Shown piece after piece: positions 24-17,206 of a stretch of DNA of 17,537 nucleotides (its first letter is position 1; every line of letters starts with the position of its first letter). Origin of the DNA: an uncultured bacterium (GTDB lineage Bacteria; BMS3Abin14); NCBI GenBank assembly GCA_965603295.1, contig CBFDCL010000043.1, forward strand, positions 1-17,537. Direction: 5' to 3'. A model generated the notes under the pieces. It was given only the letters and a program-made list of their open reading frames with translations. It was not told the origin of the DNA and ran no database searches. A program made the position numbers and the translations under genes.

Positions 24-2270
24 CTATACAATTTCCAGATTCGCGTATTTCGCCACCAGCTTTTTCTTTCCGCCCCTGGGAAAATAGACAGTGATGCGCG
101 CGTCCGGGCCGTGGCCTTCGACGTGCATGACCTGCCCCTGGCCGAACATGGGGTGCCTGACCTGCATCCCGGGCTGGAGGAAGTCCTCCCCCTCCATAGG
201 CTCCGGAACGAAGGTGAAGTCCCCGATAGCCACTTTCCCCGTTTCCGGTCCCGGCTCCGGTGGCTGATAACCTCCCACACCGGGGATGGGGAACGCGGTT
301 TCCTCGTGCATCCGGACGTTGTCTGGCGACAGCTCCAGGAAGAACCTGCTTGGAAAGGTGCTGTCATATTGCCCGAACAGGCGCCGCCGCCTGGCCATGG
401 TAAGAAAAAGCCTCTCCTTTGCCCGTGTCATGCCTACGTAACAAAGCCGTCTTTCCTCCTCCATTTCGGCCGGTTCTCCCTGGGCCCTGTAATGGGGCAG
501 GAGATCCTCTTCGACCCCGGCGATAAATGCGACGGGAAACTCGAGGCCTTTCGCAGTGTGAAGGGTCATGAGGGTAACCGAGGAGTCTTCCTCCTGCCAG
601 TTATCGATGTCCGATACCAGGGACACCTGGTCCAGGAATGCAGCCAGGGTTTCCACACCTCCCGCTGAGCTCCCGGCTGAGTCGTCGAGAAAATCCGCAA
701 CCACCGCGAGAAATTCGTGCAGGTTTTCCACCCTGGCCCGTGATTCGTCGGTTCCTTCGTCCCTCAGGGCCCGCAGGTAGCCGGTCTCCTCGAGAACTGC
801 CACTACCAGTTCGTCGAGGCCGCTGTGGACCATCTTTTCCCGAAGGCCCGTTACGGTTTCCAGAAATCGCTCGGCCGACAGAAAGGCTTTCCCACTGATG
901 GCCTGTTTTTCCAGAACGCTCCTCGATGCTTCTTCCGGGGACAAACCCCCGGCTCCGGCCTGCCTTATCTTCTCGATGGAGATTTTTCCGATCCCGCGCG
1001 GGGGAGAATTGATGACCCTTTCAAAGCTTCCCCAATCCGCAGGGTTCAGGAGAAGACGGAGGTAGGAAATGATGTCCCTGATCTCCTTCCTGTCGTAAAA
1101 ACGGACTCCGCCGACAATGACATGAGGGATGTTCATCCTCCGAAAGGATTCCTCGATGGCCCGGGACTGAGCGTTGATCCGGTAAAAGACAGCGAAATCG
1201 TCGTGTTTCAGGGATTCTTGCCGCATGAGGTTATGGATGGTTGCGGCGATAAAATCTCCCTCGTCACGTTCATCCAGGGCGGCAAAAGCGGTCACTTTCT
1301 GGCCGGTGGGCCGGACCGCCAGAAGCTCTTTTTCCTTCCTGCCCGTGTTGTGCCTGATGAGGCAGGAGGCAGCCCCGAGAATATGGCCCGTTGACCGATA
1401 GTTCTCCCCGAGGGTGACCACCAGGGCTTCCGGGAAATCTTTCTCGAAATCCAGGATGTTGGTGATGTCGGCTCCTCTCCACCGGTAGATGCTCTGGTCA
1501 TCATCCCCCACAACGCACAGGTTCCGGTGTCTGGATGAGAGGTTCCGGATGATCTGGTACTGGGCGTGGTTTGTATCCTGGTATTCATCTACCAGAATGT
1601 ACCTGAGCAGATCCTGGTAGGACTCCCGGATGTCGGAGTGTTCCTCGAAAAGCCTCCAGGTGAAGAAAAGCAGGTCATCGAAATCCAGAGCTTCGGAACG
1701 CCTCAACCTTTCGTCGTAAAGCCTGTAGGCTTGCACGATCTTTTCGAAAAGGGGGTCCCTCCGGATCTCCCCCTGTTCCTCCATCAGGTCGGGTTCGACG
1801 AGGGCGTTTTTCGCGCGGCTGATAAGATAGGAGACCCTGCGGGGCGGCAGGATCTTCTGATCCACATTCATCTCCGTCAGGACTTCCTTGATCAACCGGG
1901 ATGTGTCGTTCTCGTCGAAGATGGAAAAATGTCGGCTGATCCCGAGCTTTTCGACGTGCTGCCTGAGGATCCTCACACAGGCGGAATGAAAGGTGGAGAT
2001 CCACACGGCCTTGCCGTCCCTTCCGGCGAGCGCGACCACCCGCTCCCTCATCTCCCCGGCCGCTTTGTTGGTAAAGGTGACGGCCAGGATGGCGTAAGGG
2101 GGGACTTTGCGCTCCTGGAGGAGGTAGGCGATGCGGTAGGTGATGACGCGTGTCTTTCCGCTCCCCGCCCCGGCCAGAACCAGAAGAGGGCCCTCAGTTC
2201 GGGTCACCGCTTCCGTCTGATTGGGATTGAGGCTCTCGAGGGGAAAGGCAGCTTTACCCTGTTTTTTCAT
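24..2270 (-). CDS. pcrA: ATP-dependent DNA helicase, UvrD/PcrA/Rep family
   Basis: The N-terminus carries the Walker A motif LVLAGAGSGKTRVITYRIAYLL. The LESLNPNQTEAV N-terminal motif, the helicase motifs (DEYQDTN, TLxxNYRS) and the Tudor-like C-terminal tail (RHPMFGQGQV...) match UvrD/PcrA. The 5' end overlaps the 3' end of the upstream ClC gene by 17 nt. Confidence 0.9.
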   Translation of the reverse strand: MKKQGKAAFPLESLNPNQTEAVTRTEGPLLVLAGAGSGKTRVITYRIAYLLQERKVPPYAILAVTFTNKAAGEMRERVVALAGRDGKAVWISTFHSACVRILRQHVEKLGISRHFSIFDENDTSRLIKEVLTEMNVDQKILPPRRVSYLISRAKNALVEPDLMEEQGEIRRDPLFEKIVQAYRLYDERLRRSEALDFDDLLFFTWRLFEEHSDIRESYQDLLRYILVDEYQDTNHAQYQIIRNLSSRHRNLCVVGDDDQSIYRWRGADITNILDFEKDFPEALVVTLGENYRSTGHILGAASCLIRHNTGRKEKELLAVRPTGQKVTAFAALDERDEGDFIAATIHNLMRQESLKHDDFAVFYRINAQSRAIEESFRRMNIPHVIVGGVRFYDRKEIRDIISYLRLLLNPADWGSFERVINSPPRGIGKISIEKIRQAGAGGLSPEEASRSVLEKQAISGKAFLSAERFLETVTGLREKMVHSGLDELVVAVLEETGYLRALRDEGTDESRARVENLHEFLAVVADFLDDSAGSSAGGVETLAAFLDQVSLVSDIDNWQEEDSSVTLMTLHTAKGLEFPVAFIAGVEEDLLPHYRAQGEPAEMEEERRLCYVGMTRAKERLFLTMARRRRLFGQYDSTFPSRFFLELSPDNVRMHEETAFPIPGVGGYQPPEPGPETGKVAIGDFTFVPEPMEGEDFLQPGMQVRHPMFGQGQVMHVEGHGPDARITVYFPRGGKKKLVAKYANLEIV

Positions 2271-4032
2271 ACCGGAAGATCGCCTTTTTATAGGCAGAGA
2301 TGATGTCCCGGCGGGTCAGGATTCCCAGGATCCTGCGTGGATCCTTCGGGTCCAGAACGACGAGATGCTCCACATTTCGGTAGGCCAGTTTGCCGAGGGC
2401 ATCCTTGAGACTGTCCGAAGGGGCGATTGTGATGACGTTGTGCATGTTGGCGACGTCCTTCGCCACGATGAGGTCTTCCAGTTCCGGTTCGAACACGTGC
2501 TCACGCACGTCCTGGAAAGACAGGATCCCAACCAGGTGGTCATCGTTATCCACCACCGGGAAACTGGAATATTTGCTCTTGGTGATGTGCCTGACGATCT
2601 CCCCGAACCGCATCCCCTGGGGGATCCTTTCCACGTCGAAAGTCATGGCGTCCTTCACCTTCAGTTCCTGGAGAAGGGTGGCCTCCACCCCGGCTTTGAC
2701 GTTGATGCCTTTTTTGTGGAGCTTGAGGGTATCGATGGAGTGCGGGAAAATGCCGCGAATGGTCAGGTTGCTCACGATGCAGGCCACCATAATGGGCAGG
2801 ATAATATGGTAGTCTCCCGTGATTTCGAAAAGGAGCAGGATGCTCGTCAAGGGTGCGTGGCAGGCGGCTCCGCACAGGGCCCCCATCCCCACCAGGGCGT
2901 AGGCCCCTTTGGTCGCGGTTATCGCGGGAAAGAGAGTATGGACGACGCTTCCGAAAGTGCCCCCCACCATGGCTCCGATATAGAGGGTGGGAGCGAAGAC
3001 CCCCCCCGATCCTCCCGAGCCGAGGGTCAGGGATGTGGCGATGATCTTTAAAAATATCAGTACAAACATGAGCCCGAACGCCATGTTGCCCATCAGGGCT
3101 GTCCCCATGGGACCGTAGCCGTTCCCGAAGATCTGGGGGAAAGCGAGGCCGATGAACCCCAGGATCAACCCCCCGAGTGCCGGTTTGAGCCAGGGATGGA
3201 TTTTCACCTTCCCATTAAAGAAAGTTTCAAACCGATCCTGGGTCAGGATGAACAGAAGGGCCGTCAGACCGGTCAGGATGCCCAGAACGATGTAAAGGCC
3301 GATCTCCATGGGGTTGACCAACTGGTAGTAGGGAACATCGAAGGCGTGAATGTTGCCGTGGATGTACCTCCCCACGGTGGTGGCGACCACCGAGGACATG
3401 ATCACCGGGCTGAAAGCCGCTGCGTGCCATTCACCGAGAATGATCTCCAGGGCGAAAAGGGTGCCCGCGAGAGGAGCGTTGAAGGTGGCTGCGATGCCCC
3501 CCGCGGCACCGGCCCCGAGCAGGGTCCTCGTGTTGTTGGTGGACAGTTTGAAGACCTGGGCCGTGTAGGACCCCACCGCGCTGCCGATCTGGGCGATAGG
3601 CCCTTCCCTCCCGGCGGAGCCCCCGGAACCGATGCAGATGGCGGATGTGAAGAGCCTGATGAAAATGGTTCGCATCTTCAGGATGCCACCCCGCATGATC
3701 ACCGATTCCATGACCTCGGGGACCCCCTGACCCTTGGCTTCGCCAGGGAACAGGCTGCCGATGGGTCCTGCCACGAGTCCGCCGATGGCAGGAAGAAGGG
3801 GAATCAGGAGGACCTTCAGGTCCCCGGGGGTATACCCCGTAAACACCCCTCCCCATGGGATCCAGAATATCTCGCGGAACAGGGCAATCAGTTCGATAAA
3901 GCCCACGGCCCCGAGGCCGCTGAACAGCCCGATGACGATGGCCAGCATCAGAAGAATGGTGTCTTCGCTCCGGAGAGTGTTCATCAGGGCGTCGTGCGGC
4001 GTCCGGATGATCATCTTCATTTTTTGTTTCAT
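2254..4032 (-). CDS. ClC-family chloride channel / Cl-/H+ antiporter with C-terminal CBS-domain pair
   Basis: The 592-aa product has multiple TM helices and the ClC motifs GREGP and GVFAPT. A GDY Tyr-containing segment is present. The C-terminal ~130 aa form two CBS-like repeats (VVDNDDHLVGILSFQDV, VLDPKDPRRILGILTRRDI). ATG at 4030-4032 is preceded by AGGGG. Confidence 0.85.
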   Translation of the reverse strand: MKQKMKMIIRTPHDALMNTLRSEDTILLMLAIVIGLFSGLGAVGFIELIALFREIFWIPWGGVFTGYTPGDLKVLLIPLLPAIGGLVAGPIGSLFPGEAKGQGVPEVMESVIMRGGILKMRTIFIRLFTSAICIGSGGSAGREGPIAQIGSAVGSYTAQVFKLSTNNTRTLLGAGAAGGIAATFNAPLAGTLFALEIILGEWHAAAFSPVIMSSVVATTVGRYIHGNIHAFDVPYYQLVNPMEIGLYIVLGILTGLTALLFILTQDRFETFFNGKVKIHPWLKPALGGLILGFIGLAFPQIFGNGYGPMGTALMGNMAFGLMFVLIFLKIIATSLTLGSGGSGGVFAPTLYIGAMVGGTFGSVVHTLFPAITATKGAYALVGMGALCGAACHAPLTSILLLFEITGDYHIILPIMVACIVSNLTIRGIFPHSIDTLKLHKKGINVKAGVEATLLQELKVKDAMTFDVERIPQGMRFGEIVRHITKSKYSSFPVVDNDDHLVGILSFQDVREHVFEPELEDLIVAKDVANMHNVITIAPSDSLKDALGKLAYRNVEHLVVLDPKDPRRILGILTRRDIISAYKKAIFRYEKTG

Positions 4033-4039
4033 GAGGCCC

Positions 4040-5869
4040 CTATTCCACGGTTACGCTCTTGGCCAGGTTCCTCGGTTGATCAACATCCGTTCCCTTGAGG
4101 ACAGCCACGTGATAAGCGAAGAGTTGGAGTGGTATCGTGCTCAGAATGGGGGTGAGCATCGGGTCAGTCTGGGGGATGCGGATCAGGTGGTCCGCTTTTT
4201 CCTGTAGCTGAGGGTCATCGTGATCGGCCACCGCGATAACGATCCCTCCCCTTGCCTTAACTTCCTCGATGTTGGAAAGGACCTTCTCGTAAACGCTGTC
4301 CTTCGTCGCCAGGAACAGGACGGGCATGGTTTCGTCAATAAGGGCGATGGGGCCGTGCTTCATCTCTCCCGCCGGGTACCCTTCGGCGTGGATGTAGCTG
4401 ATCTCCTTGAGTTTTAAAGCTCCTTCCAGGGCGATGGGGAAGTGGATCCCCCTCCCCAGATAGAGGAAATCGGGGTGCTGATAATAAAGACCGGCTAACT
4501 CCTCGATGGCCCCGCTGCCGCTCAGGATTTTCTCAACCTGGTGGGGCAGGGCTAGAAGGGAGTCCATGAGCCCCATGGCCTTTTGCTGGTCAAGGGTGCC
4601 GCGGCGCCTCCCAAGAAATATGGAAAGAAGGAGAAGGCAGACGATCTGGGTTGTGAACGCCTTGGTGGACGCGACCCCGATCTCCGGCCCGGCGTGGGTA
4701 TAAAGAACAGCGTCCGACTCCCTGGTGATCATGCTGCCCACAACGTTGCAGATGGATAGTACCGTGGCTTTTTTCTCACGGCACTCCCGGATGGCGGCCA
4801 GGGTGTCGGCTGTTTCACCGGACTGGCTGATCGCAACGGCCAGGGTGTTCTTGCCGATGACCGGATCACGGTAGCGGAATTCGGACCCGTAATCGACCTG
4901 CGTGGGGATCTTCGCCAGCCCCTCCAGGAGGAACTGGCCTACCAGTCCGGCATGCCAGGATGTGCCGCACGCGATAAGGGTGCACCGGTCCACATCCTGG
5001 ATGAAAGCATCCTCCAGGTGGATATCGTCCAGAGTAATGCGCCCGTTATCCTCGGAGTATCGCCCTCTCAACGTGTCGGCCAGGGCCTCGGGCTGTTCGT
5101 GGATCTCTTTCAGCATGAAATGCTTATAGCCGCCCTTTTCGGCGCCGATGGGGTCCCAGGGGACGAGAATGGGCTCCCGCTCGATTTCCCGGCCCTCCAG
5201 GTCGGTGATGCGGATTCCCTCGGCGAAGAGGGTTATCACGTCGCCATCATCGAGGTAGAGAAAACGCCGAGTATGATGCAGGACCGCGGGGATATCGGAA
5301 GCGACGAACATCTCCCCCTCACCAAAACCGACGACCATCGGGGGACCGCTGCGGGCCGCGACGAGCCTGTCCGGACAATCCGCATGGACGACGACAAGAG
5401 CGTAAACTCCGACGACTTCTTTAAGAGCCTTTCGGACAGCCTCTTCGAGGTCACCCTGGAAGTGTTCCTCAACGAGGTGGGCGATAACTTCGGTATCGGT
5501 TTCCGAGGCCATGGTGTGGCCTTTAGAAACAAGGCCCTGGCGGATGGTCCTGTAGTTTTCGACGATGCCGTTGTGAACAACCACCAGGCGTCCCGTGCAG
5601 TCGCGGTGAGGGTGGGCGTTTTCCTCGCTGGGTTTGCCATGTGTGGCCCAGCGCGTGTGACCTGCTCCCAGATGTCCCCAGAGAGGGTTTTTCCGGACAA
5701 CTTCACCCAGATCGTGGATTTTTCCGGCACTTCGGCGAAGGGCGATCTCCCCATCCCGGACCACAGCCACTCCCGCGGAATCGTAACCCCGGTACTCCAG
5801 CCGGCGGAGCCCCTCGAGAAGCACATCGGCAGCTTCCTGTTTCCCGATATAACCGACGATCCCGCACAT
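4040..5869 (-). CDS. glmS: glutamine--fructose-6-phosphate aminotransferase (isomerising)
   Basis: The true N-terminus is MCGIVGYIG, with the Cys2 nucleophile of class-II amidotransferases. Two SIS domains follow and the protein ends ...KSVTVE. The ORF-track entry 4040-6127 includes an in-frame 86-codon upstream extension with no homology. I place the start at ATG 5867-5869, with GGAGG 10 nt upstream inside the glmU 3' end. The glmU stop and glmS start overlap as TGATG. Confidence 0.9.
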   Translation of the reverse strand: MCGIVGYIGKQEAADVLLEGLRRLEYRGYDSAGVAVVRDGEIALRRSAGKIHDLGEVVRKNPLWGHLGAGHTRWATHGKPSEENAHPHRDCTGRLVVVHNGIVENYRTIRQGLVSKGHTMASETDTEVIAHLVEEHFQGDLEEAVRKALKEVVGVYALVVVHADCPDRLVAARSGPPMVVGFGEGEMFVASDIPAVLHHTRRFLYLDDGDVITLFAEGIRITDLEGREIEREPILVPWDPIGAEKGGYKHFMLKEIHEQPEALADTLRGRYSEDNGRITLDDIHLEDAFIQDVDRCTLIACGTSWHAGLVGQFLLEGLAKIPTQVDYGSEFRYRDPVIGKNTLAVAISQSGETADTLAAIRECREKKATVLSICNVVGSMITRESDAVLYTHAGPEIGVASTKAFTTQIVCLLLLSIFLGRRRGTLDQQKAMGLMDSLLALPHQVEKILSGSGAIEELAGLYYQHPDFLYLGRGIHFPIALEGALKLKEISYIHAEGYPAGEMKHGPIALIDETMPVLFLATKDSVYEKVLSNIEEVKARGGIVIAVADHDDPQLQEKADHLIRIPQTDPMLTPILSTIPLQLFAYHVAVLKGTDVDQPRNLAKSVTVE

Positions 5870-7299
5870 CAGCTTCTGTCCTCCTTTTTGCCAATAGCCA
5901 GTTTCCGGCGGCGTTCCGCCGCCCAGCCTTCTTTGGAGGACTGGCGTCCTCTTGCCACGGCTAGAGCATCCGGGGGCACGTCTTTGGTGATGGTCGAACC
6001 TGCAGCCACCAGGGATCCCTCCCCGAGAACGACAGGAGCGACAATCATGGTACCGCTGCCGACGAAAACTCCGTCCCCGATCTGCGTCCGGTGTTTGGCG
6101 AACCCGTCGTAGTTGCACGTAACACACCCGGCGCCGATATTGACGCCGCGGCCGAGCTGGGCATCCCCGATGTAAGTCAGATGGGAGACTTTGCTCCCCT
6201 CACCAATGATCGCTTCCTTCGTCTCGACGAAGTTCCCGATCCGGGCGGATGGCCCAATGTTGGATCCGGGCCTCAAATGGGAAAAAGGCCCGACCGAAGC
6301 CCCATTTTCCAACCGGGCCCCGGTGATAACACAGAAAGGGCGGATCTCCACATCCCGGCCGATAATGGTGTCGGTAATGACAGCGCTTGGCCCGATAGTG
6401 GAACCGGATCCGATTCGGGTATCCCCGTGGAGGAACGTCATGGGTCGAATCTCGGCACCCGGCTCAATTACCACCGATGCATCGATCCAGGTGTTGTCCG
6501 GGTCGAGGATCCTGACCCCGGAGTCCATGAGTGTTAGAACATGTTTTTGGTTCATTTTCGCCTCCATGGCGGCCAGTTCGCCCAGCGTATTGATCCCCCT
6601 GGCTTCATCGGGGTCCGGGGCGATGCACGTGATCACTCCCGACCCGGCAGCAACGGCGGATCTCACCAGGTCAGTGAGGTAATATTCCCCCTGGGCGTTA
6701 TCGTCGGTCAGACGGGGAATCTCCCTTTTCAGGAAGGCGGCGTCAAAGGAATAGACACCCAGGTTCACCTCGTCGATCCCCTCTTGGGTTTGGTCGAGAT
6801 CTTTTTGTTCACGGATCTCCGAAATCCGGCCCTGGCCATCTGTGAGAATCCTTCCGTAACCGGTGGGGTTTTCCAGGCGGCCCGTCAATAAAGCGACGTC
6901 GGCGCCTGCCCGGATCCTTTCCCCGGCAAGGTGAGCAAGGGTCCGGGGGCGTACGCAAGGCGTGTCCCCGGACAGGACCAGAACAGTTCCTTCAAAATCG
7001 TCCAGAGCCGGGAGACATTGGGCCACGGCGTGGCCGGTACCCAGCTGGGGGTCCTGCCTGACTGTTTCGGCTGTGATCTCTCCGGGCCATCGATGGAGGC
7101 TGCTTTCGACCTCGTCGGCCCCGTATCCGGTTACGATGATAAGCCTGACAGATCCCAGTTCCCGGATGGAATCCAGGAGATGGTGGAGGAGGGGTTTCCC
7201 TCCGAGTTTGTGAAGGACTTTCGGGACCCCGGAATTCATCCGGGTCCCCTTGCCGGCGGCAAGGACAATCACGGCGGGGATGGAGGACAGGGAAAGCAT
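5869..7299 (-). CDS. glmU: bifunctional UDP-N-acetylglucosamine pyrophosphorylase / glucosamine-1-phosphate N-acetyltransferase
   Basis: The N-terminal nucleotidyltransferase motif is VIVLAAGKGTRM. The C-terminal left-handed beta-helix hexapeptide repeats end in the acetyltransferase tail. No clear SD precedes ATG 7297-7299, so the exact start is less certain. Confidence 0.85.
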   Translation of the reverse strand: MLSLSSIPAVIVLAAGKGTRMNSGVPKVLHKLGGKPLLHHLLDSIRELGSVRLIIVTGYGADEVESSLHRWPGEITAETVRQDPQLGTGHAVAQCLPALDDFEGTVLVLSGDTPCVRPRTLAHLAGERIRAGADVALLTGRLENPTGYGRILTDGQGRISEIREQKDLDQTQEGIDEVNLGVYSFDAAFLKREIPRLTDDNAQGEYYLTDLVRSAVAAGSGVITCIAPDPDEARGINTLGELAAMEAKMNQKHVLTLMDSGVRILDPDNTWIDASVVIEPGAEIRPMTFLHGDTRIGSGSTIGPSAVITDTIIGRDVEIRPFCVITGARLENGASVGPFSHLRPGSNIGPSARIGNFVETKEAIIGEGSKVSHLTYIGDAQLGRGVNIGAGCVTCNYDGFAKHRTQIGDGVFVGSGTMIVAPVVLGEGSLVAAGSTITKDVPPDALAVARGRQSSKEGWAAERRRKLAIGKKEDRS

Positions 7300-7463
7300 A
7301 CGAACCAGTGTGGGCTCCAGGCAAAAGGTTAATGAATTAGGGGCTGCTGGCCACAGATGTCAGGTTGGCATGAATGTCACGTTCAGCGGTCTGTGAAGGT
7401 CCAAAAATACCCTAATGTCAGATTATTTCAATGGGTTTAAGGGTGTCAAGAAAAGAGAAAACG

Positions 7464-7498
7464 GTTTGATGTTTGATGTTTGAAGTTTGAAGTTGCGA
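7464..7498. repeat. heptamer tandem array GTTTGAT/GTTTGAA x5
   Basis: Direct reading gives gtttgat gtttgat gtttgaa gtttgaa gttgcga. Confidence 0.9.
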
Positions 7499-7502
7499 AA
7501 TG

Positions 7503-7549
7503 GATCCAAGATCTTTAGATCCAAGATCCAAAATCCAAGATCCAAAAAA
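7503..7549. repeat. GATCCAA-type tandem array (~5 units) containing five GATC sites
   Basis: Direct reading gives gatccaa gatcttta gatccaa gatccaaaa tccaa gatccaaaaaa. Confidence 0.85.
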
Positions 7550-7554
7550 GGAAC

Positions 7555-7582
7555 GTTAAACAATAAACTTTAAACGATAAAC
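7555..7582. repeat. heptamer tandem array NNTAAAC x4
   Basis: Direct reading gives gttaaac aataaac tttaaac gataaac. The same unit family recurs at 17256-17290. Confidence 0.85.
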
Positions 7583-7593
7583 GTATATCCCCT

Positions 7594-7628
7594 CTGAACA
7601 CTGAACTCAGAACTCTGAACTCAAGATA
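7594..7628. repeat. heptamer tandem array CTGAACT x5
   Basis: Direct reading gives ctgaaca ctgaact cagaact ctgaact caagata. Confidence 0.9.
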
Positions 7629-7687
7629 ATTCCCCTCCGTGTCTCCATGTCTTCGCGTCTCCGTTTCAACCTGTTCAGGTTTACTTA

Positions 7688-7708
7688 TCACCAATCACTA
7701 ATCACCGG
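7688..7708. repeat. heptamer tandem array ATCACYA x3
   Basis: Direct reading gives atcacca atcacta atcaccg. It is related to the units at 14601-14637. Confidence 0.8.
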
Positions 7709-7717
7709 TGCTTTTTC

Positions 7718-7752
7718 TCAATTCTCAACCCTCAACCCTCAATTCTCAATTT
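7718..7752. repeat. heptamer tandem array CTCAAYY x5
   Basis: Direct reading gives ctcaatt ctcaacc ctcaacc ctcaatt ctcaatt. Confidence 0.9.
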
Positions 7753-7761
7753 TACTATTGC

Positions 7762-7791
7762 TTGGCAATTCCCTTTTTCCTCTGTTATCAT
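7762..7791 (+). promoter_or_regulatory. candidate sigma70-type promoter for the SPFH/NfeD operon
   Basis: TTGGCA (7762-7767), an 18-bp spacer, then TGnTATCAT (extended -10 at 7783-7791). This sits ~50 nt upstream of the first gene's ATG at 7840, immediately downstream of the heptamer-repeat arrays. The assignment rests on motifs only. Confidence 0.25.
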
Positions 7792-7839
7792 TTTTAACCG
7801 AAAGGAAAATACACTTAATCTCCGGCCGGGCGAGAGGTT

Positions 7840-8400
7840 ATGGAACAGAGGATTCGTCAGCTCGAAAAGGATGTCCAGAGGTTAAAGACGGCCTACGATC
7901 AGTATTTTGCCGGGGTGGAGCGCAAAGCCCCGGAAAAGCTGGCTGATAGCGTCGCCAGGGAGGTCCGTTCCCTGACCGGCACCCTGATCAACAATACGGC
8001 ATTGCGTTTCCGGGCCCAGCAGGCCATTTCCCGTTATCAGACCTATCATACTTTCTGGCAGAAAAACCTGAAGGACATCGAGGAAGGGAGAAAACCGCGG
8101 CGCCGGGTTACGGGAAGGGCGGCCGCCTCGGGGGAGAAACGTCCCCCCGGCGTCTTTGAGATATCCACCTCCAAGGTGGAAAGAGGCGAAATGGAGAAAT
8201 TTTTTTCCGCTCTGACAAAGGAATACCGCCTTGCCGGCGCGGGCAAAGTTCCCGACATGGGGCGCATACGGGAGGCGCTGGAGGAGCAGACCAGGACTAT
8301 TCGTGAGAAATACGGCTGCGAGAAGGTTGCGTTCAAAGTGGTAAACGAGGGCGGCCAGGTCAAGATAAAGGCCTCCCCGGTTGACAGGGAAAAGACATGA
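7840..8400 (+). CDS. hypothetical protein (186 aa), coiled-coil N-terminus, basic central linker
   Basis: The ORF is long, GC3-rich and codon-biased. AGAGG sits just upstream of ATG 7840. Its stop overlaps the next gene's start as ATGA (8397-8400). I recognise no family. Confidence 0.6.
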   Translation: MEQRIRQLEKDVQRLKTAYDQYFAGVERKAPEKLADSVAREVRSLTGTLINNTALRFRAQQAISRYQTYHTFWQKNLKDIEEGRKPRRRVTGRAAASGEKRPPGVFEISTSKVERGEMEKFFSALTKEYRLAGAGKVPDMGRIREALEEQTRTIREKYGCEKVAFKVVNEGGQVKIKASPVDREKT

Positions 8401-8909
8401 CGAAATCGAGAGTCGCATCGCTTTTGGAAAAGATATCCAAGATCGTCCCCGGGGTTGCGGGGTACCAGGACAGGGAACGGCGCCGGGATGCCGACAAGGC
8501 CGTTCGTAACAAGATCGTGGCGTCACTGACCCGCTGTCGGCACCGGCTTTCGAATGGGATGAGCGATATTTCCCGGGCCGGAGGGCGGGGCAGTCTGAGT
8601 GCGGTGGGGAACCTGGAAAGGGTTAATACCCGGCTCGAGCGCATTGAGGACGAGATCAGATATGCTCCCCATGGGTACGCGGGGTGGTTCGACCGTGAGG
8701 GTGTCGCCCTGGAGGACCTGGAGAGGCTTTATGAGCACGACCTGTCTCTCCTTGAGATTGCCGAAAGGATGGTTGAACTGGTCGGGCCCGTCGAGGCCCT
8801 CGGTTCCGAAAGGGACTGGATGCAGGATCTCGGGCGGGAACTGGAGGCGTTAAGACAGGCTCTTGATAACCGGATGTCCGTTATCAGGGGAGGGGAGGAA
8901 CCGCGTTGA
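8397..8909 (+). CDS. hypothetical protein (170 aa), Arg/Glu-rich predicted helical
   Basis: It is translationally coupled at both ends: ATGA with the upstream gene and TTGA with the downstream gene. I recognise no family. Confidence 0.55.
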   Translation: MTKSRVASLLEKISKIVPGVAGYQDRERRRDADKAVRNKIVASLTRCRHRLSNGMSDISRAGGRGSLSAVGNLERVNTRLERIEDEIRYAPHGYAGWFDREGVALEDLERLYEHDLSLLEIAERMVELVGPVEALGSERDWMQDLGRELEALRQALDNRMSVIRGGEEPR

Positions 8910-10042
8910 GTGAGTTCATCGAGGTCCTGGAATGGGTTGATAATACCGGCAAGGAGATGGTTCACAGGGTCCCTCTGGACGGAACAGGGGAGATCAAGTT
9001 TGGTGCCCAACTTGTGGTCAATGAGAATCAGGCGGCCGTTTTCTTCCGCGACGGAAAGGCCCTGGATGTCCTCGGGCCCGGAAGGCATACCCTGACCACG
9101 CAGAACCTGCCACTTCTCACGAAAGCCCTCAGCCTTCCCTTCAACTTCAAGAGCCCTTTCAAGGTGGCGATCTATTTCGTTTCCATGAAGACCTTTACGA
9201 ACCTCGCCTGGGGCACGCGGGATCCGGTGGCGTTCCGGGATAAGGAACTCGGGATGGTTCGCCTGAGGGGGCACGGCGTTTACACCATCCGGGTCGTTCA
9301 ACCGATGCTCTTCGTCAACGTTCTAGCGGGGACCCAGGGGATTTTCACGACAAAGGAGATCGCGGATTATCTCAGGGCGGTCATTATCTCCCGTATCAAC
9401 GACCTCCTCGGGGAGAACGTCGAATCCCTCCTGGAGCTTCCCCAGGTTTACGAGGAGCTGGGGGCCGCTGCGAAGGCCCGGGTGCGGGACGATTTCCTGA
9501 AATATGGAATTGAGTTGCGAGACCTGATCATCCGGGCGATCACCCCCCCCGATGACGTCCAAAAGATCATTGACGAGCGGGGAAGCATGACCGCTGTCGG
9601 AGAACGGGATTACCTTCGGTTCAAGGCGGCGCAGTTCATGGGGGAGGCCGGCAAGGGAGAAGGCGGAGGGTCCTCTACCGCCGAATCGGGGATGGGCCTT
9701 GGCCTGGGAGCCGGGTTCGGGATGATGGTCCCCGCTTTCCTTCGGTCCGCCATGGAAGGAAAGGATGCTTCACCGGCCCCGTCGAAAGAGACCTGTCCCC
9801 AATGCCGGGCCGGTCTTCCCGCTGACGCGAGGTTCTGTTTCCGCTGCGGGACTCCCGTTGTGAGAGGGCAGGTGTGCGCCTCATGCGGTCAGGATCTGCC
9901 CTCGGATGCGCATTTTTGCCACCGCTGCGGGCAGGAGATGAAGAAAAACAAGCCGGTCTGTTCCCATTGCGGCAACAAGGTCCCGGAAGGGGCGCACTTC
10001 TGTCTGCACTGCGGTGAGAAGATCGAGACGAGCACCCCCTGA
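8906..10042 (+). CDS. SPFH/Band-7 protein of the YdjI type (Band_7_1-like) fused to three tandem zinc ribbons
   Basis: The N-terminus MSEFIEVLEWVDNTGKEMVHRVPLDG...NENQAAVFFRDGKALDVLGPGRHTL matches the YdjI/Band_7_1 family. A Gly/Met-rich linker (GGGSSTAESGMGLGLGAGFGMM) follows. Three repeats of CxxC-x10-FCxxCG (CPQC..FCFRCG, CASC..FCHRCG, CSHC..FCLHCG) close the protein. It uses a TTG start at 8906 with GGAGG 9 nt upstream. Confidence 0.8.
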   Translation: MSEFIEVLEWVDNTGKEMVHRVPLDGTGEIKFGAQLVVNENQAAVFFRDGKALDVLGPGRHTLTTQNLPLLTKALSLPFNFKSPFKVAIYFVSMKTFTNLAWGTRDPVAFRDKELGMVRLRGHGVYTIRVVQPMLFVNVLAGTQGIFTTKEIADYLRAVIISRINDLLGENVESLLELPQVYEELGAAAKARVRDDFLKYGIELRDLIIRAITPPDDVQKIIDERGSMTAVGERDYLRFKAAQFMGEAGKGEGGGSSTAESGMGLGLGAGFGMMVPAFLRSAMEGKDASPAPSKETCPQCRAGLPADARFCFRCGTPVVRGQVCASCGQDLPSDAHFCHRCGQEMKKNKPVCSHCGNKVPEGAHFCLHCGEKIETSTP

Positions 10043-10044
10043 AG

Positions 10045-11361
10045 GTGACACAGGTCAACTACGTCAACCATTGCTGCTCCCAATGCGGCGGTGAAGTGGT
10101 TTTCGACCAGGAGGCCACCGGAACGCGCTGTCGCTACTGCGGGGCTGGTCTCATGATTCTGGGTGCCCGTTCCTCCTGGTTGAACTTTCTGCTGAAACCG
10201 GGGATCACAGTTCCGGATACCGCCCGCGAAGTGACCCGGATTGCCCAGGGAAACGGATGGAAACCTCCCCTTCTCAGATCCGTCCTGCCTTTTTATTATC
10301 CGTTTTTCAGAACCATCGGGCATGCCATCAAGTGGGTCAGGGGGGATGCTCCCGGCTCCGGGGATGGTACCGATCACGTTGAAAAGATCCTCACTCGTTA
10401 CGTCGACCTGATGCGCCCGGCTCATGCCGACCTGTCACCGGGGCTTTTTTCCCCTGGGTATCGGGCCCAGTCCCTTAACCTTTATCTCGCCACAAGGAAT
10501 AACGCGGGGAAGATCCCGTTCCTTCCCATTCAGAAAGACAGGAATGAGCACATGGGGAACATGGAGGACGATTTCTTCGACGGGATGCCGGATCCGGGGC
10601 TTCGGGTCCGGGAAAAGCGACTTTTTAAACTCTGGGAGAGAAACTCTGTCCTTTTCTTTCCCCTCTCCCTGGTGGAGATCCGTGAGGGAAGCCAGATCAG
10701 GCTCCTGTTGCTCGACGCCATCGGGGGATCTCTCATCAGGCAGATTGGCCATGAGGAGATGGAAAAACTCCTCGACAACCTGGACCTGGAAAAGAGCCGT
10801 TCCCCCGGCGAAACCCGTTTGAAACTGGCACCCCTGATCTGTCCGGAATGCGCGGGAGACCTGGACCCCGATCCCAGGGCCTTTGTCCGGTTCTGCCGTG
10901 CCTGCGGACGGGGGTGGGAACCGCTGGGGGGAAGGCTACGGGAAAGGGAGTGCCTGTGGGCGGGAGCCAAACCCCAGGCCAGGGACGCGTCGGCGATCTT
11001 TCTGCCGTTCTGGAGGAAAGAGACCGATGGGGAGGCTCTGCACATCCCCGCCTTCGAAATACGCTCTCCCCGGCTTCTTTACAACCTGTCGGTCCGGTAT
11101 TACCATGCAAACTTCCCCGCCGAGCCGATCCCTTATGAAAACAGGCTCCAAATGCGTTCTCTCCCGGCGGGCCTGCCGCCCGAAGGGGCGGATGAAATGG
11201 CGGATGTGGTGGTACAGACGGGAGCAAGGCCGGTTTCACACCCCAGGAAAGGCAGTTATGCCATTGTCCTGGTTCCGTTCTTTCGCAAGGGGCCGGATCT
11301 CGTGGAGCCGTTTCACGGGCTGGCTGTTCCCATTTCCAGCCTGGAGGTGAAGGTAGGATGA
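10045..11361 (+). CDS. hypothetical zinc-ribbon protein (438 aa) with two CxxC-x14-CxxCG modules
   Basis: A GTG start lies 2 nt after the upstream stop. The N-terminus has CSQCGGEVVFDQEATGTRCRYCG and a second module CPECAGDLDPDPRAFVRFCRACG sits near residue 247. Each module is followed by a hydrophobic LPF(Y/W) segment, which suggests an internal duplication. The stop overlaps the nfeD start as ATGA. Confidence 0.6.
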   Translation: MTQVNYVNHCCSQCGGEVVFDQEATGTRCRYCGAGLMILGARSSWLNFLLKPGITVPDTAREVTRIAQGNGWKPPLLRSVLPFYYPFFRTIGHAIKWVRGDAPGSGDGTDHVEKILTRYVDLMRPAHADLSPGLFSPGYRAQSLNLYLATRNNAGKIPFLPIQKDRNEHMGNMEDDFFDGMPDPGLRVREKRLFKLWERNSVLFFPLSLVEIREGSQIRLLLLDAIGGSLIRQIGHEEMEKLLDNLDLEKSRSPGETRLKLAPLICPECAGDLDPDPRAFVRFCRACGRGWEPLGGRLRERECLWAGAKPQARDASAIFLPFWRKETDGEALHIPAFEIRSPRLLYNLSVRYYHANFPAEPIPYENRLQMRSLPAGLPPEGADEMADVVVQTGARPVSHPRKGSYAIVLVPFFRKGPDLVEPFHGLAVPISSLEVKVG

Positions 11362-12854
11362 AAAAAACCCGACGCTTCATGATCCTGCTAATCCTCGTCT
11401 CTCTTGTTCGCATGGGTACCGGAGTCCTGGCAGAGCAGGTTTCCCCATCGGGGACGAGCGTGGTCAGGATCGTTGTGGACGGCCCTATCAGCCCGGTCAC
11501 AGCCGATTATATCGAGAGGGGGATCGAAAAAGCCCTGGAGGAGGATGCCTCTCTCCTTATTCTCGAACTGGACACACCGGGGGGCCTCATGACGTCCACG
11601 CGCCAGATCGTGAAAGCCCTCCTGGGAGCTGAAGTTCCCATTGCGGTCCACGTCGCTCCGCCAGGTGCCAGGGCGGCATCCGCGGGCGTCTTCATCACGA
11701 TGGCATCCCATGTGGCGGTTATGGCTCCCGGAACCAATATCGGGGCAGCCCACCCGGTCAACGTGGGGGGAGGGAACCCGCTGACCCCGAAGAAAGAAGA
11801 CCGGAAGGAAAATAACGGAAAGAGGAAAGAGCAAGGGGCGGAGGATTCGAAACCGAACGACGGAAAGAGTGTCTCCGGCGAAGACAAAAAAGAAGGATCA
11901 GATAAGGAGGACAAATCCGGGAAGGAAGAAAAGGAAGACGACCCGAGCGTAATGTCCCAGAAGGTCCTCAACGATGCCGTGGCTTTCGTACGGTCCATTG
12001 CCCAGAAAAGAGAACGGAACGCCGACTGGGCGGAAAAGGCTGTCCGGGAGAGTGTTTCGGTGACCGAAAGGGAGGCACTCGAGCTTAACGTGGTAGACTT
12101 CATCGCCGAGAGCACGGAAGACCTCCTCGCGGCGGTTCACGGGCGGACCGTGGAGATCGCGGGGAACGAGGTTACCCTGAATGTGGCCGATGCCAGGGTC
12201 GTGGAATATCCCATGGGCTGGAGGCACAGGGTACTCATGGCTCTTTCCGATCCCAACATCGCCTACATTCTCATGATGTTGGGGATTTACGGCCTTTTCT
12301 TCGAACTTTCCAACCCCGGGGTGATCCTTCCCGGTGTCCTGGGCTCCATTTTTCTCATCCTGGCTTTTTTCTCCTTCCAGGTGCTGCCCATCAATTACGC
12401 CGGGCTTCTTCTCATCATCGTAGCCCTTGTCCTGTTCATCCTTGAAGTGAAGGTCGTCTCCTATGGAATGCTGTCCGTGGGGGGTGCCGTTGCCCTTTTC
12501 CTGGGGAGTATTATGCTTTTTGAATCCGCAGAGCCCTACTACCGTCTTTCTTTAAAGCTGGTGGTCAGTATGACCGCCCTGACTGTCCTGTTTTTCGCGG
12601 TGATCCTTGGATTTGCCATCCGCATCCAGCGCCGGAAACCCACAACGGGTCTGGAGGGCTTGTTGGGGGAACCCGGGGTGGTAACGGTGGCCCTGAATCC
12701 CGAGGGGAAGATCAAGGTCCACGGGGAGATCTGGACGGCCTGGTCGGACAGCCCCCTTCCGAAGGGCACCCGGGTCAAGGTCACAGAGGCCGAGAGGATG
12801 AAACTGAAAGTGGTAAAAGAAACCGAAAAAGAGGTCCTAAGTCCTAAGTCCTAA
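11358..12854 (+). CDS. NfeD-family membrane-bound ClpP-class serine protease (long form, stomatin operon partner)
   Basis: A signal peptide/TM precedes the ClpP-like domain (LELDTPGGLMTSTRQI, PPGARAASAGVFI, APGTNIGAAHP). A multi-TM segment and a C-terminal OB-fold (VVTVALNPEGKIKVHGEIWTAWS) complete the protein. A ~55-aa K/E/D/G/S-rich insertion interrupts the protease domain. SD GGAGGTGAAGGTAGG precedes ATG 11358. Confidence 0.85.
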   Translation: MKKTRRFMILLILVSLVRMGTGVLAEQVSPSGTSVVRIVVDGPISPVTADYIERGIEKALEEDASLLILELDTPGGLMTSTRQIVKALLGAEVPIAVHVAPPGARAASAGVFITMASHVAVMAPGTNIGAAHPVNVGGGNPLTPKKEDRKENNGKRKEQGAEDSKPNDGKSVSGEDKKEGSDKEDKSGKEEKEDDPSVMSQKVLNDAVAFVRSIAQKRERNADWAEKAVRESVSVTEREALELNVVDFIAESTEDLLAAVHGRTVEIAGNEVTLNVADARVVEYPMGWRHRVLMALSDPNIAYILMMLGIYGLFFELSNPGVILPGVLGSIFLILAFFSFQVLPINYAGLLLIIVALVLFILEVKVVSYGMLSVGGAVALFLGSIMLFESAEPYYRLSLKLVVSMTALTVLFFAVILGFAIRIQRRKPTTGLEGLLGEPGVVTVALNPEGKIKVHGEIWTAWSDSPLPKGTRVKVTEAERMKLKVVKETEKEVLSPKS

Positions 12855-12861
12855 GTTCCAA
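12834..12861. repeat. heptamer tandem array GTCCTAA x3 plus degenerate unit, overlapping the last 6 codons and stop of nfeD
   Basis: Direct reading gives gtcctaa gtcctaa gtcctaa gttccaa. It encodes ...VLSPKS*. Confidence 0.9.
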
Positions 12862-12874
12862 GTACTTCTTATCT

Positions 12875-12908
12875 CTCAGGACTTATCGCGTAGAACTGGG
12901 TTTTTTTT
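12875..12908 (+). terminator. weak hairpin plus T8 run between nfeD and the stomatin gene (possible attenuator/terminator)
   Basis: A run of eight T at 12901-12908 follows CGCGTAGAACTGGG. Only an imperfect upstream stem can be drawn (AAGTCCTAAG/CTCAGGACTT). Confidence 0.2.
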
Positions 12909-12935
12909 ATTAACCCGTTTGTCAGGGGGTGAGCC

Positions 12936-13715
12936 ATGTTTCCGATGAGCTATTTGATAATCAGTGCGATCATCCTGGTGGTCATGTTCCTCTCTTCCGC
13001 CATCAAAATCCTGCGGGAATACGAGAGGGGTGTCGTTTTCTTCCTGGGACGCCTGGTGGGTCCCCGGGGGCCGGGGCTGGTGATCATCATCCCCGTCCTC
13101 GAGAAGTTGGTCCGCGTCAGCCTGAGACTCGTGACGATGGATGTGCCTCCGCAGGACATTATCACCAGGGACAACGTCTCTGTGAAGGTGAACGCGGTGG
13201 TCTATTTCCGGGTGATGGACCCTAACAAGGCCATCGTCGAGGTGGAGGATTTCTTCTACGCAACGAGCCAGCTGGCCCAGACAACCCTCAGGAGCGTCCT
13301 GGGTCAGGTGGAACTGGATGATCTGCTCTCGGAGAGAGAAAAGATCAACCACCAGCTGCAGGAGATCCTCGATACTGCCACCGATCCGTGGGGAGTCAAG
13401 GTTACGACGGTGGAAGTCAAGCACGTGGACCTTCCCACCGAGATGCAAAGGGCCATGGCGAAGCAGGCGGAGGCCGAAAGAGAGCGCCGGGCCAAAGTCA
13501 TCGCTGCGGAAGGGGAATTTCAGGCAGCCGACAAGCTGGGCCAGGCAGCGGCCATCATCTCCGCTCACCCGCAGGCCCTCCAGCTTCGATACCTGCAGAC
13601 CCTGGCGGAAATTGCCACGGAAAACAATTCCACCACGCTCTTTCCGATCCCCATGGACCTGATCAGCGGTTTCATGAATCTCGTCCAAGGAGGGAGCCGG
13701 AAAGAGGAAAAATAG
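12936..13715 (+). CDS. stomatin/prohibitin-like SPFH (Band 7) protein, YbbK/QmcA type
   Basis: An N-terminal TM helix precedes the SPFH core ([28 protein letters not shown]) and a coiled-coil C-terminus. The NfeD gene lies immediately upstream, which is the conserved NfeD-stomatin pair. GGGGTG precedes ATG 12936. Confidence 0.85.
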
Positions 13716-13735
13716 GGCGGGAGGCCTGAGACGCC

Positions 13736-14422
13736 ATGTCACGAATATTCGCCTCGGTTATCGCCGGATTCAGGTACGTGTTTTTCCTGGCAGTGCTGGC
13801 TTTGGCTGCCCTTTCCCTGGTTTCTCTGGTGAGGGGAATGGGGGAAATATTGTTTCTCTTCCATGGCCGCGGTCTGACCGTGGGGCCCGGGAGTGGCGTC
13901 GCCGCGGTCCACTGGTTTTTCCAGGCGTTTTTCCTGTATTTTCTCGCGGTGGCTCTCTGCTCGCTCCTGGTTGCCGAAACTCCTGTTCCCCAATGGATGG
14001 TGGTTAGAAACCTTTTCCAGTTCCGGAACAAGGTCCTGACCATCGTTTCCGTTATTCTGCCCCTGGCGTTTCTGGGAAAAGTGATGAAGGCGGACGTGTC
14101 CGGCCCTGGTCTCCTCTTTTCGGGGGGCGGTGTCTTTCTTGTCCTTGCGGGGATTTTCCTCCTGACCAGGTTCGGTTCTCCTGCAGGGGATGAGGGGATG
14201 GCCCGGGAAGGGAACCGGTCCCCTGATCGGACAGGACGAAGAGACCGGAAAACCACACACCCCGGAGGACGGGATTCCCGCAAGGACCGGAACTGGCAGG
14301 AAAAGCCGAAGGAGGATCCCTCGCGAAGAGCGGAGGGAGATCCGGATGCCTCATCCGAATTCCGGAAAAACGGCAACGTAACGGTCAAGCCGGGACCAAG
14401 AAGGCCGAGACAGCGGCGATAG
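13736..14422 (+). CDS. YqhA/UPF0114-like integral membrane protein with Arg/Asp-rich C-terminal tail
   Basis: The N-terminus MSRIFASVIAGFRYVFFLAVLALAAL resembles the YqhA family. It has 4 predicted TM helices and a ~80-aa low-complexity basic/acidic tail. GGGAGG lies 12 nt upstream of ATG 13736. Confidence 0.5.
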   Translation: MSRIFASVIAGFRYVFFLAVLALAALSLVSLVRGMGEILFLFHGRGLTVGPGSGVAAVHWFFQAFFLYFLAVALCSLLVAETPVPQWMVVRNLFQFRNKVLTIVSVILPLAFLGKVMKADVSGPGLLFSGGGVFLVLAGIFLLTRFGSPAGDEGMAREGNRSPDRTGRRDRKTTHPGGRDSRKDRNWQEKPKEDPSRRAEGDPDASSEFRKNGNVTVKPGPRRPRQRR

Positions 14423-14551
14423 CCGCCTCGCCTCCAGACGGGTGGTTGGACGCGGAGAAAGGGAGACCCGCCTTCGCAAAAGCTTCGGGGTAGCAAGCAC
14501 GGTGACGCGGAGAAAATCCTACGACCTGGCGGCAGGGAGATAGGAAAATCA

Positions 14552-14616
14552 CGTTTAACGTGGAAAACTTGTGACTTGTGATTGTTGACTGGAATATACG
14601 AATCACCAATCACCAA
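14552..14616. repeat. left copy of ~64-bp inverted repeat (built from heptamer units CTTGTGA x2-3 and AATCACC)
   Basis: cgtttaacgtggaaaacttgtgacttgtgattgttgactggaatatacgaatcaccaatcacca is ~90% identical to the reverse complement of 17207-17270. Confidence 0.85.
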
Positions 14617-14637
14617 TCACGAATCACCAATCACAAA
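14601..14637. repeat. heptamer tandem array AATCACC x5
   Basis: Direct reading gives aatcacc aatcacc aatcacg aatcacc aatcaca. Confidence 0.9.
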
Positions 14638-14660
14638 TATCTTTCAGATGGAATTTCTCC

Positions 14661-15452: not shown

Positions 15453-15550
15453 ATATTCAACATTCAAGATTCAAAAAAAAATCGAAAAAGGATTTTCTGG
15501 AAAAAATGAACGAGGGAGGAATGATTTTTTGAATATTGAATCTTGAATAT
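15453..15550. repeat. 26-bp imperfect inverted repeat (24/26) with 46-bp spacer; arms are heptamer arrays ATTCAAN x3
   Basis: atattcaacattcaagattcaaaaaa (15453-15478) pairs with ttttttgaatattgaatcttgaatat (15525-15550). It lies directly after the stop of the 14661-15452 gene. Confidence 0.8.
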
Positions 15551-15566
15551 GAAAATTGAAGTTGCC

Positions 15567-15610
15567 GTGCGTATGAAATCAGAGCCAACAGGCTCTGTTT
15601 TCATACGCAC
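15567..15610. terminator. bidirectional rho-independent terminator hairpin between the convergent hypothetical gene and zwf
   Basis: GTGCGTATGAAATCAGAGCC-AACA-GGCTCTGTTTTCATACGCAC forms a 19/20-bp stem with a 4-nt loop. The inner GC core CAGAGCC/GGCTCTG is followed by TTTTCAT on the plus strand and by ATTTCAT on the minus strand. The right arm contains the zwf stop codon. Confidence 0.6.
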
Positions 15611-17136: not shown

Positions 17137-17170
17137 TCAAGGTCCTTTTTTTCTCAGAGTACAAACAGTA

Positions 17171-17198: not shown

Positions 17199-17206
17199 AT
17201 TGGTGA

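Follow-up and report, generated by a model that had tools for sequence, protein, structure and literature searches.

Heptanucleotide arrays that tile the intergenic spacers of an unclassified bacterium are probably simple sequence repeats born in place

What fills the intergenic spacers of a bacterium with abutting tandem arrays of a 7-bp unit, when the unit itself differs from array to array? The question is raised by a 17,537-nt stretch of DNA from an uncultured relative of "bacterium BMS3Abin14" (assembly GCA_965603295.1, contig CBFDCL010000043.1; the whole stretch is called the window here), in which a preliminary description had listed such arrays in every AT-rich spacer, including six side by side between glmU and a divergent operon that encodes an SPFH protein (the SPFH operon). 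The analysis reported here indicates that the arrays are probably heptanucleotide, and in some cases octanucleotide, simple sequence repeats (SSRs) of the kind known as long SSRs or short tandemly repeated repetitive (STRR) sequences, which would be born in situ, turn over by slippage, and decay in DNA that is free of constraint.

Arrays were called with Tandem Repeats Finder (TRF), and the spacer DNA was compared with 200 dinucleotide-preserving shuffled sets of itself. The window has only five spacers longer than 80 bp (7300-7839, 12855-12935, 14423-14660, 15453-15600, and 17137-17302). Together (1,173 bp) they carry 13 period-7 TRF rows, compared to 0.055 per shuffled set, and their mean lag-7 identity is 0.414, compared to 0.265 ± 0.015 in the shuffles. 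When the spacers were delimited by GC content, as low-GC segments, lag-7 identity was 0.35-0.42 in every one of them but 0.25 in the rest of the window, where lag-3 codon periodicity was the only periodicity seen. In the 16.4 kb outside the spacers, TRF returned two weak period-7 rows, one at 11817-11831 (×2.1) and the other being the coding part of the array at 12834; all arrays of at least 2.8 copies fall in the five spacers, one of them extending over the last 7 codons of NfeD. Of the spacer DNA, 39% consists of arrays, whose GC content is 0.34, against 0.46 for the remainder. Each array named in the preliminary description was reported by TRF, among them the six adjacent 7-mer arrays of the main spacer, which confirms the observation.

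To put these numbers in context, 80 GlmU loci from other bacteria (1,295 kb) served as controls, and ~160 kb of loci from the clade stood in for whole genomes. Array density is 0.74 per kb in the window and 0.034 per kb in the controls, a difference of ~22-fold. The period had been described as strictly 7 nt. Seven is indeed dominant, and within the spacers TRF found no other period besides 14- and 21-bp super-periods of the same arrays and a single 8-mer array, reported on the opposite strand only; because of that period-8 array, the period is dominant rather than strict. Relative to controls, period 7 shows an 8-fold and period 8 a 6-fold enrichment in 125 kb of clade loci, and neither period 6 nor period 9 shows any, which argues that the preference for 7-8 bp is intrinsic to the process and not just the outcome of a frameshift filter. 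The 8-mer array had been overlooked at first, as had the TTGAATA array after the DUF1722-family gene and a short GGTGATN pair (Table 1).

The units are diverse. At least 12 different ones occur in the 17.5-kb window, with six or seven in a single spacer, and the clade loci hold ~29 canonical units among 33 arrays, which lie in every class of non-coding DNA and beside unrelated genes. Similar units make up 4.2% of pairs, compared to 2.4 ± 0.85% for random units of equal composition. As the preliminary description had argued, such variety is hard to reconcile with one protein-binding motif. No Rfam covariance model matched the window at its gathering score, and the arrays therefore do not belong to a known RNA. 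Three other independent assemblies (L081, L086, and L096) carry the main-spacer arrays in identical form, and in L081 the arrays of the other spacers, as far as 16895, are also unchanged. Since the arrays recur identically in independent assemblies, an assembly artefact is ruled out.

In the main spacer (7300-7839), between glmU and the SPFH operon, only two blocks are conserved among relatives with 62-78% identity in the adjacent protein. One holds the predicted glmU promoter and the other, GCTTGG..CTCTGTTATCATTT, holds the predicted SPFH-operon promoter; both are kept in L094, L083, L087, L089, and L082. Among sigma-70-like sites of the right-hand 10 kb, these two rank highest, each with an extended −10 TG, and their conservation supports the prediction that they are the promoters of glmU and the SPFH operon. 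The arrays of this spacer are found only between the two −35 hexamers (7450-7761), where six 7-mer arrays and the 8-mer array cover 228 of 312 bp (73%), at 90-375 bp from the start codons. Because they lie upstream of both predicted −35 elements, they are probably untranscribed from these promoters. The stretch between the promoters ranges from ~55 to ~310 bp in relatives and has no alignable sequence; since the distance varies this much, its length and content are not under constraint, and the main-spacer arrays occupy just this unconstrained part.

That the arrays fill a gap between divergent promoters could also be read as structural DNA, either phased bending, as had been suggested, or a spacer that organizes the nucleoid or insulates the two promoters. 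A length of 21 bp, or three units, comes to about two turns of the helix, and for some arrays TRF gives a 21-bp super-period. However, identity at lags 10 and 11 is 0.20-0.29 in all spacers, which is background. Since there is no excess identity at these lags, A/T tracts are not in helical phase, and 7 bp is itself out of phase with the helical repeat. Phased bending was rejected on this measure, and with an inter-promoter distance as variable as that given above, a structural role of any sort is highly improbable. We also observed that the strand composition reverses midway through the main spacer (7401-7800), with GC skew changing from +0.06 to −0.49 and AT skew falling from +0.20 to −0.27; the DNA upstream of each of the two promoters is pyrimidine-rich and G-poor on the strand that has the sense of the nearby gene.

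The orthologous spacers of relatives show arrays at several stages. In L094 (78% protein identity), GTTTGAT is present twice where the window has 4.4 copies, a single TTCAACC stands at the place of the window's CTCAAYY array (×5.3), and a related CGTTAAACATTGAA doublet is akin to the NNTAAAC array. The L094 spacer has neither the GATCCAA nor the CTGAAC array, and it carries a CAGGTTA array of its own (×3.4) where the window has none. The orthologous spacers of L083, L082, L087, and L089 contain none of the window's arrays. A leader that is conserved in other respects has CTGAAAC ×4.3 in L088 and one related GAAACTGAAAAAAC stretch in L083. Whole-unit change was observed in L087 and L088, near-identical contigs of one relative (16.7 kb), which are 99.92% identical with 6 substitutions: Their sole indel is exactly one GTCCAAT unit, present in 3 versus 4 copies. 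Together, the ortholog comparison, the unit indel, and the enrichment support birth of arrays in situ, unit-wise expansion and contraction, and decay. The trait itself differs sharply within the clade, because L082 (CP070682.1) and L099 (BMS3Abin14, BDTG01000041.1), with an equal gene neighborhood, are essentially without 7- or 8-bp arrays: Arrays are dense in the window lineage and in L083 and L088, but their density is about zero in these two, over ~20 kb each. The complete chromosomes CP070698.1 and CP070719.1 belong to relatives that have arrays.

As a mechanism, we propose that a short local sequence would be duplicated, that the copies would gain or lose whole units by strand slippage or misalignment in replication or repair, and that the arrays would then collect point changes and decay. 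The process may act on all DNA, with its products surviving only where an indel of 7 or 8 bp is harmless, i.e., in the unconstrained parts of spacers (the DNA between divergent promoters, leaders, and 3′ flanks) and at the extreme ends of reading frames. If array birth is fast or removal slow in this lineage, adjacent independent arrays would come to tile the free DNA, and most single arrays would have no sequence-specific function. In this scheme, we infer that slippage is the molecular step and that individual arrays are neutral, and the cause of the preference for 7-8 bp is likewise inferred. Beyond the main spacer, the window's arrays lie in leader or upstream DNA (14567-14638 and 17170-17290), in the 3′ flank between convergent genes (15453-15560), and over the NfeD stop codon (12834-12856). 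Because this last array encodes the end of NfeD, and the C-terminal tails of NfeD vary among relatives, arrays can remodel the ends of reading frames.

These properties are those of the long SSRs of Mrazek, Guo & Shah (2007), which are likewise tandem 7-nt units in few copies, mostly intergenic, with period 7 favored over the range 5-11 and with lengths that differ between close relatives. The window shows two marks of the class as that study understands it, tandem units of 5-11 nt beyond chance and, with a unit length that is not divisible by three, a location mostly in non-coding DNA; whole-unit gain or loss between close relatives is found in the relatives L087 and L088. Heptanucleotide repeats are the most abundant class of long SSR in most prokaryotic genomes, and Mrazek (2007) proposed as the cause that ~7 nt contacting the polymerase favors slippage (both as summarized in PMC4679880 and PMC4692102); a survey of short tandem repeats (PMC12699852) has nothing specific on heptamers. 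Seven is also the commonest period in our control loci. The lineage-specific mutational process suggested in the preliminary description therefore needs to be split: A mutational origin is the best supported, by the single and double seeds in L094, the unit indel of L087/L088, and the location in non-conserved DNA, but the process is not peculiar to this lineage, since heptanucleotide SSRs are the commonest elsewhere too. What varies between lineages is array density. The host belongs to an unclassified lineage near "bacterium BMS3Abin14", outside the phyla reported so far for long SSRs, and the window is a very dense case of a known repeat class in a lineage not described for such arrays in the searchable literature, where the accession numbers of the relatives also gave no hits.

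The STRR sequences of cyanobacteria were reportedly described by Mazel in 1990. In classical STRRs, few heptamers are reiterated genome-wide, unlike the many units of the window and clade and the six or seven arrays that abut in one spacer. In Haemophilus influenzae, hmw1A and hmw2A have phase-variable 7-bp promoter repeats that change by slippage, so that a 7-bp unit in a regulatory region is common to both cases. Contingency loci, however, are long, perfect, hypervariable, and placed at surface-protein genes, whereas the arrays of the window are short, imperfect, unchanged in four assemblies, and beside housekeeping genes. The main arrays lie upstream of the predicted −35 elements, and only the array at 12834 touches a reading frame, in its last codons. 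A phase-variable contingency SSR was rejected, given arrays outside promoter spacers and no variation among the four assemblies.

Xanthomonas (GGGAATC) and Nostoc (GGGGAYT) have hundreds of intergenic heptamer arrays, mostly of ~4 units (Rehm et al. 2015, PMC4692102), with one G-rich unit per genome and G-quadruplex potential; the units of the window are AT-rich (GC 0.34-0.39) and diverse and cannot form G-quadruplexes. Inverted pairs between convergent genes are found among the Xanthomonas arrays, and array lengths are not conserved between related species (PMC4692102). Marine Beggiatoaceae have TAACTGA direct repeats, proposed to be protein- or ribosome-binding repeats in leaders (MacGregor 2015, PMC4679880), and Nostoc has heptamer repeats of several units near promoters and start codons around recF and recO (bioRxiv 10.1101/2022.06.06.494920). 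Both resemble the present case in having many short heptamer arrays in the intergenic DNA of environmental bacteria. TAACTGA, however, is one unit located a few nucleotides upstream of start codons, while the window has many units, and its main arrays stand upstream of promoters.

Several observations weigh against so simple an origin by duplication and slippage. First, the window is 99.76% identical to L081 (39 substitutions) and 99.77% identical to L096 (18 substitutions), yet no copy number changed in 14 arrays compared with L081, nor in the main-spacer arrays compared with L096 and L086. Second, adjacent units are not significantly more alike than distant ones, the arrays being too short for this test to reach significance. 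Third, the units are TTG/CAA-rich (9 of 14 versus 0.20 expected, p ~3e-4), and TTG/CAA occurs in 48% of units in the clade versus 17% in controls. Fourth, independent variants fall on the same unit position in 10 pairs, versus 4.9 expected (p ~0.02). Fifth, an identical 21-mer, TTGGATCTTGGATTTTGGATC, is found in the window (7518-7545, minus strand) and at a non-orthologous place in L083 (4837-4857). Finally, two genes have an array-bearing element of 67 nt upstream of them in equal relative orientation, and the only three clear inverted array pairs of the clade share one orthologous 3′ site. The TTG/CAA bias, the shared variant position, the 21-mer, the inverted pairs, and the 67-nt element suggest sequence preference or selection on some arrays, and the strong differences in array density between relatives are not fully explained by simple slippage. 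All of these effects are modest in size and come from small samples that are not fully independent of one another. They leave room, in the case of some arrays, for a reading in terms of protein binding or of a specific enzyme.

The unchanged strain-level copies, set beside a single slippage event observed directly in a relative, mean that array mutability is modest: These short, imperfect arrays are mutable, not hypervariable. Copy-number variation between related strains, which the preliminary description had named as a check, is seen in the one GTCCAAT unit of L087/L088 and not among the window's own strain-level copies.

A protein-binding reading would have the arrays act in cis, as reiterated sites for DNA-binding or nucleoid-associated proteins that polymerize along AT-rich heptads, with copy number tuning expression. 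The closest precedent is the ctxAB promoter of Vibrio cholerae, where TTTTGAT heptads are bound by H-NS, ToxT, and ToxR and where copy number varies by strain and affects expression. The window has a similar AT-rich heptad array directly upstream of a −35 element: GTTTGAT ×4.4 begins 14 bp upstream of the predicted, conserved glmU promoter and resembles TTTTGAT. The AT-richness of the arrays relative to the remaining spacer DNA, their TTG/CAA-rich units, variation concentrated on one unit position with a 6-nt core intact, and the equal orientation of the 67-nt element upstream of two genes would all fit, as would the finding that TTGGATY, TTGAGRN, and AATCACN arrays recur in several clade members but are nearly absent from 1.27 Mb of controls. 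However, ctxAB has one functional array, whereas those of the window are spread over at least 12 units with six or seven in one spacer and are not kept in orthologous spacers or promoters: L094 retains 2 units, and L083, L082, L087, and L089 retain none. The close relatives L082 and L099 lack arrays entirely, and arrays also extend across a stop codon, lie within an operon, and occupy 3′ flanks. On this balance, a cis-regulatory role as the general explanation seems to us unlikely.

Inverted array pairs bear on a further alternative, namely, that a subset of arrays works at the level of RNA or hairpins, with inverted pairs terminating or stabilizing transcripts and leader arrays binding a protein or the ribosome. 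Among 48 clade arrays of period 7 or 8, clear inverted pairs number three only, and all of them immediately follow the stop codon of the orthologous DUF1722-family gene, with a different unit each time. In the window, the 26-nt arms are 92% complementary and fold with z −3.9 as DNA and −3.6 as RNA. The L083 pair (17868-17936, AAATCTC/ATGAGAT) has an RNA z of −4.0, and the L089 pair (16870-16968, GGATTGA/CAATCCT) forms a 24-bp stem followed by T8, with −59.5 kcal/mol and z −10.5. A weak period-8 pair in L088 (18267-18340) folds no better than shuffles (z +0.3), so that three of four inverted pairs at this orthologous 3′ flank fold significantly better than shuffles. Judging from these comparisons, the hairpin structure appears to persist while the unit sequence is replaced, as would be expected if the two arms of an ancestral hairpin evolve together, be it because the stem is selected for or because the template switches from one arm to the other.

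The Xanthomonas inverted pairs between convergent genes, and the position of the L088 CTGAAAC array, which ends 35 nt before an ATG, are also in keeping with a role at the RNA level. Against it, the main-spacer arrays are probably untranscribed, and the hairpin of the window is AT-rich, lacks a U-tract after it, and is followed by a separate hairpin of conventional terminator type, which probably serves as the terminator between the convergent DUF1722-family gene and zwf. The L088 pair and both copies of the 67-nt element (z −1.9 and −1.0) do no better than shuffles, and there is the lack of Rfam matches in the window. For the 67-nt element and the region at 12834, a hairpin was rejected because their folds do not exceed those of shuffles. 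As an account of a subset of arrays, a role in RNA is improbable, and it would in any case be compatible with an origin by slippage.

The repeated segments raise the question of whether arrays have been copied between spacers as remnants or cargo of small mobile or dispersed elements, akin to miniature inverted-repeat transposable elements or repetitive extragenic palindromes. The 67-nt composite element occurs twice in the window, its copies being 90% identical as inverted repeats and equally oriented relative to their own genes, the DUF1722-family gene and zwf; possible readings are an operator or promoter region common to both genes and a dispersed element of small size. Array-plus-flank likeness is also found between 7682-7705 and 14597-14620 (88% over 24 nt, TAC flank included) and between 7552-7592 and 17261-17301 (76% over 41 nt), and the 21-mer is common to the window and L083. 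However, the units of most arrays are unique and do not recur; neither terminal inverted repeats nor target duplications nor a transposase came to light; the L094 seeds show expansion in place; and unit sharing is near the random expectation. A mobile origin is accordingly very unlikely, and of the dispersed repeat family that had been proposed, what stands is a few duplicated segments, with units otherwise only marginally more alike than random ones. The 21-mer TTGGATCTTGGATTTTGGATC carries an identical internal variant unit in both species, where the neighboring proteins are ~64% identical; in L083, it adjoins a TTGAGAT array, whose unit type the main spacer of the window has as well.

In place of simple slippage in unconstrained DNA, the arrays may, more speculatively, be the footprint of a specific, lineage-variable tandem-duplication process. 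Candidate causes are a changed polymerase of replication or repair, a changed flap-processing enzyme, and the loss of loop repair. The process would add 7-8 bp at a time, favor seeds that contain TTG/CAA, and be error-prone at one position in each unit (a "6+1" pattern, as in AATCAC-N, CTGCGT-N, and N-GAAACGG). It would be on in the window lineage, L083, and L088 and off in L082 and BMS3Abin14, and its products would sometimes be co-opted, e.g., as the repeat-armed hairpins kept at one orthologous 3′ site. We regard this reading as tentative and unlikely.

The preference for a 7-bp unit in bacterial tandem repeats has been a minor puzzle since 2007, and the sole proposal on record is the speculative polymerase footprint. 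The clade offers a natural contrast, with syntenic relatives whose spacers are either saturated by 7/8-bp arrays or free of them, and comparing the replication and repair genes of such relatives could reveal what sets the rate and the unit size. The arrays also inflate and destabilize spacers, can mislead searches for motifs and small RNAs, and extend into the ends of reading frames, while the inverted arrays show hairpins that keep their structure during sequence turnover.

Table 1. Arrays, predicted signals, duplicated segments, and genes of the window
Feature	Position	Strand	Remarks
uvrD/pcrA	24-2270	minus	
CLC channel gene	2254-4032	minus	
glmS	4040-5869	minus	
glmU	5869-7299	minus	
Predicted glmU promoter, TTGACA-16-AATAAT with TG	7422-7449	minus	Score 11/12; left boundary of array block
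GTTTGAT/GTTTGAA ×4.4	7464-7494	plus	TRF; 14 bp upstream of glmU −35
GATCCAA ×6.0 (minus strand TTGGATC)	7503-7545	plus	TRF
NNTAAAC (CGTTAAA type) ×4.6	7552-7584	plus	TRF row 7552-7583; 14-bp super-period
CTCTGAA ×4.4	7592-7622	plus	TRF
Period-8 GTCTCCNN ×3.8	~7637-7666	plus	TRF on opposite strand of L096 (563-592, ACGGAGAC ×3.8)
WATCACY ×3.3	7683-7705	plus	TRF
YYCTCAA ×5.3 (minus strand TTGAGRR)	7715-7751	plus	TRF
Predicted SPFH-operon promoter, TTGGCA-18-TATCAT with TG	7762-7791	plus	Score 10/12; right boundary of array block
Seven-gene SPFH operon	7840-14422	plus	
GTCCTAA ×3.3	12834-12856	plus	TRF; encodes last six residues of NfeD (VLSPKS) and stop
67-nt composite element, copy 1	14551-14617	plus	CTTGTGA array and start of AATCACN array; ends 44 bp upstream of ATG 14661
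CTTGTGA ×3.4	14567-14590	plus	TRF; inside 67-nt element copy 1
AATCACN (AATCACC) ×5.4	14598-14638	plus	TRF row 14601-14638, period 7, score 62; 21-bp super-period ×2, score 75
Pyr_excise/DUF1722-family gene	14661-15452	plus	
Left arm, ATTCAAN ×3 and A-run	15453-15478	plus	Directly after DUF1722/Pyr_excise-family stop codon; TRF row 15455-15474, ×2.9
Right arm, T-run and TTGAATN ×4.7	15525-15560	plus	TRF row 15529-15560, TTGAATA
Separate 20-bp hairpin with short T-run	15567-15610		Not array-based; 95% complementary; terminator-like match 15580-15597
zwf	15601-17136	minus	
ATTTCAA ×3.3	17170-17192	plus	TRF; upstream of zwf (minus strand)
67-nt composite element, copy 2	17199-17265	minus	Ends 63 bp upstream of zwf ATG (17136, minus strand)
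Short GGTGATN pair	17203-17216		
TCACAAG/TCACCAA ×3.3	17226-17248		TRF; inside 67-nt element copy 2
CGTTAAA ×4.3	17255-17290	plus	TRF row 17255-17284
Further gene		minus	Continues past window end

The gene map of Table 1 was drawn from Pfam scans and from gene calls on a near-identical contig. The zwf product had no exact counterpart on record, probably owing to a different choice of start codon. The host lineage is unclassified and related to "bacterium BMS3Abin14", which NCBI places under unclassified Bacteria: GlmS is 70% identical to that of BMS3Abin14, with the glmU-glmS-uvrD synteny in common, and the nearest GlmU among the matches listed from species-representative genomes is 55% identical. 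In the SPFH operon, the gene of the SPFH/zinc-ribbon protein is preceded by those of two unknown proteins and followed by those of an unknown 438-aa protein, NfeD, a second Band_7 protein, and a 228-aa protein. Throughout the clade, the operon is conserved and keeps its synteny beside glmU. Four of its seven products have no significant Pfam match, the 228-aa protein having a sub-threshold UPF0114 match only, and a homolog of the first protein is labeled "MXAN_5187 C-terminal domain-containing protein" in one source. Among the controls, L017, a metagenome-assembled genome of Thermoanaerobaculia, has two ~105-112 bp arrays of GATGATT-type heptamers (6632-6743 and 6908-7012) with a ~35-bp super-period. 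These are inverted, ~165 bp apart across a non-coding gap, and much larger than any array of the window, and they may be a different kind of element, e.g., iteron-like or mobile.

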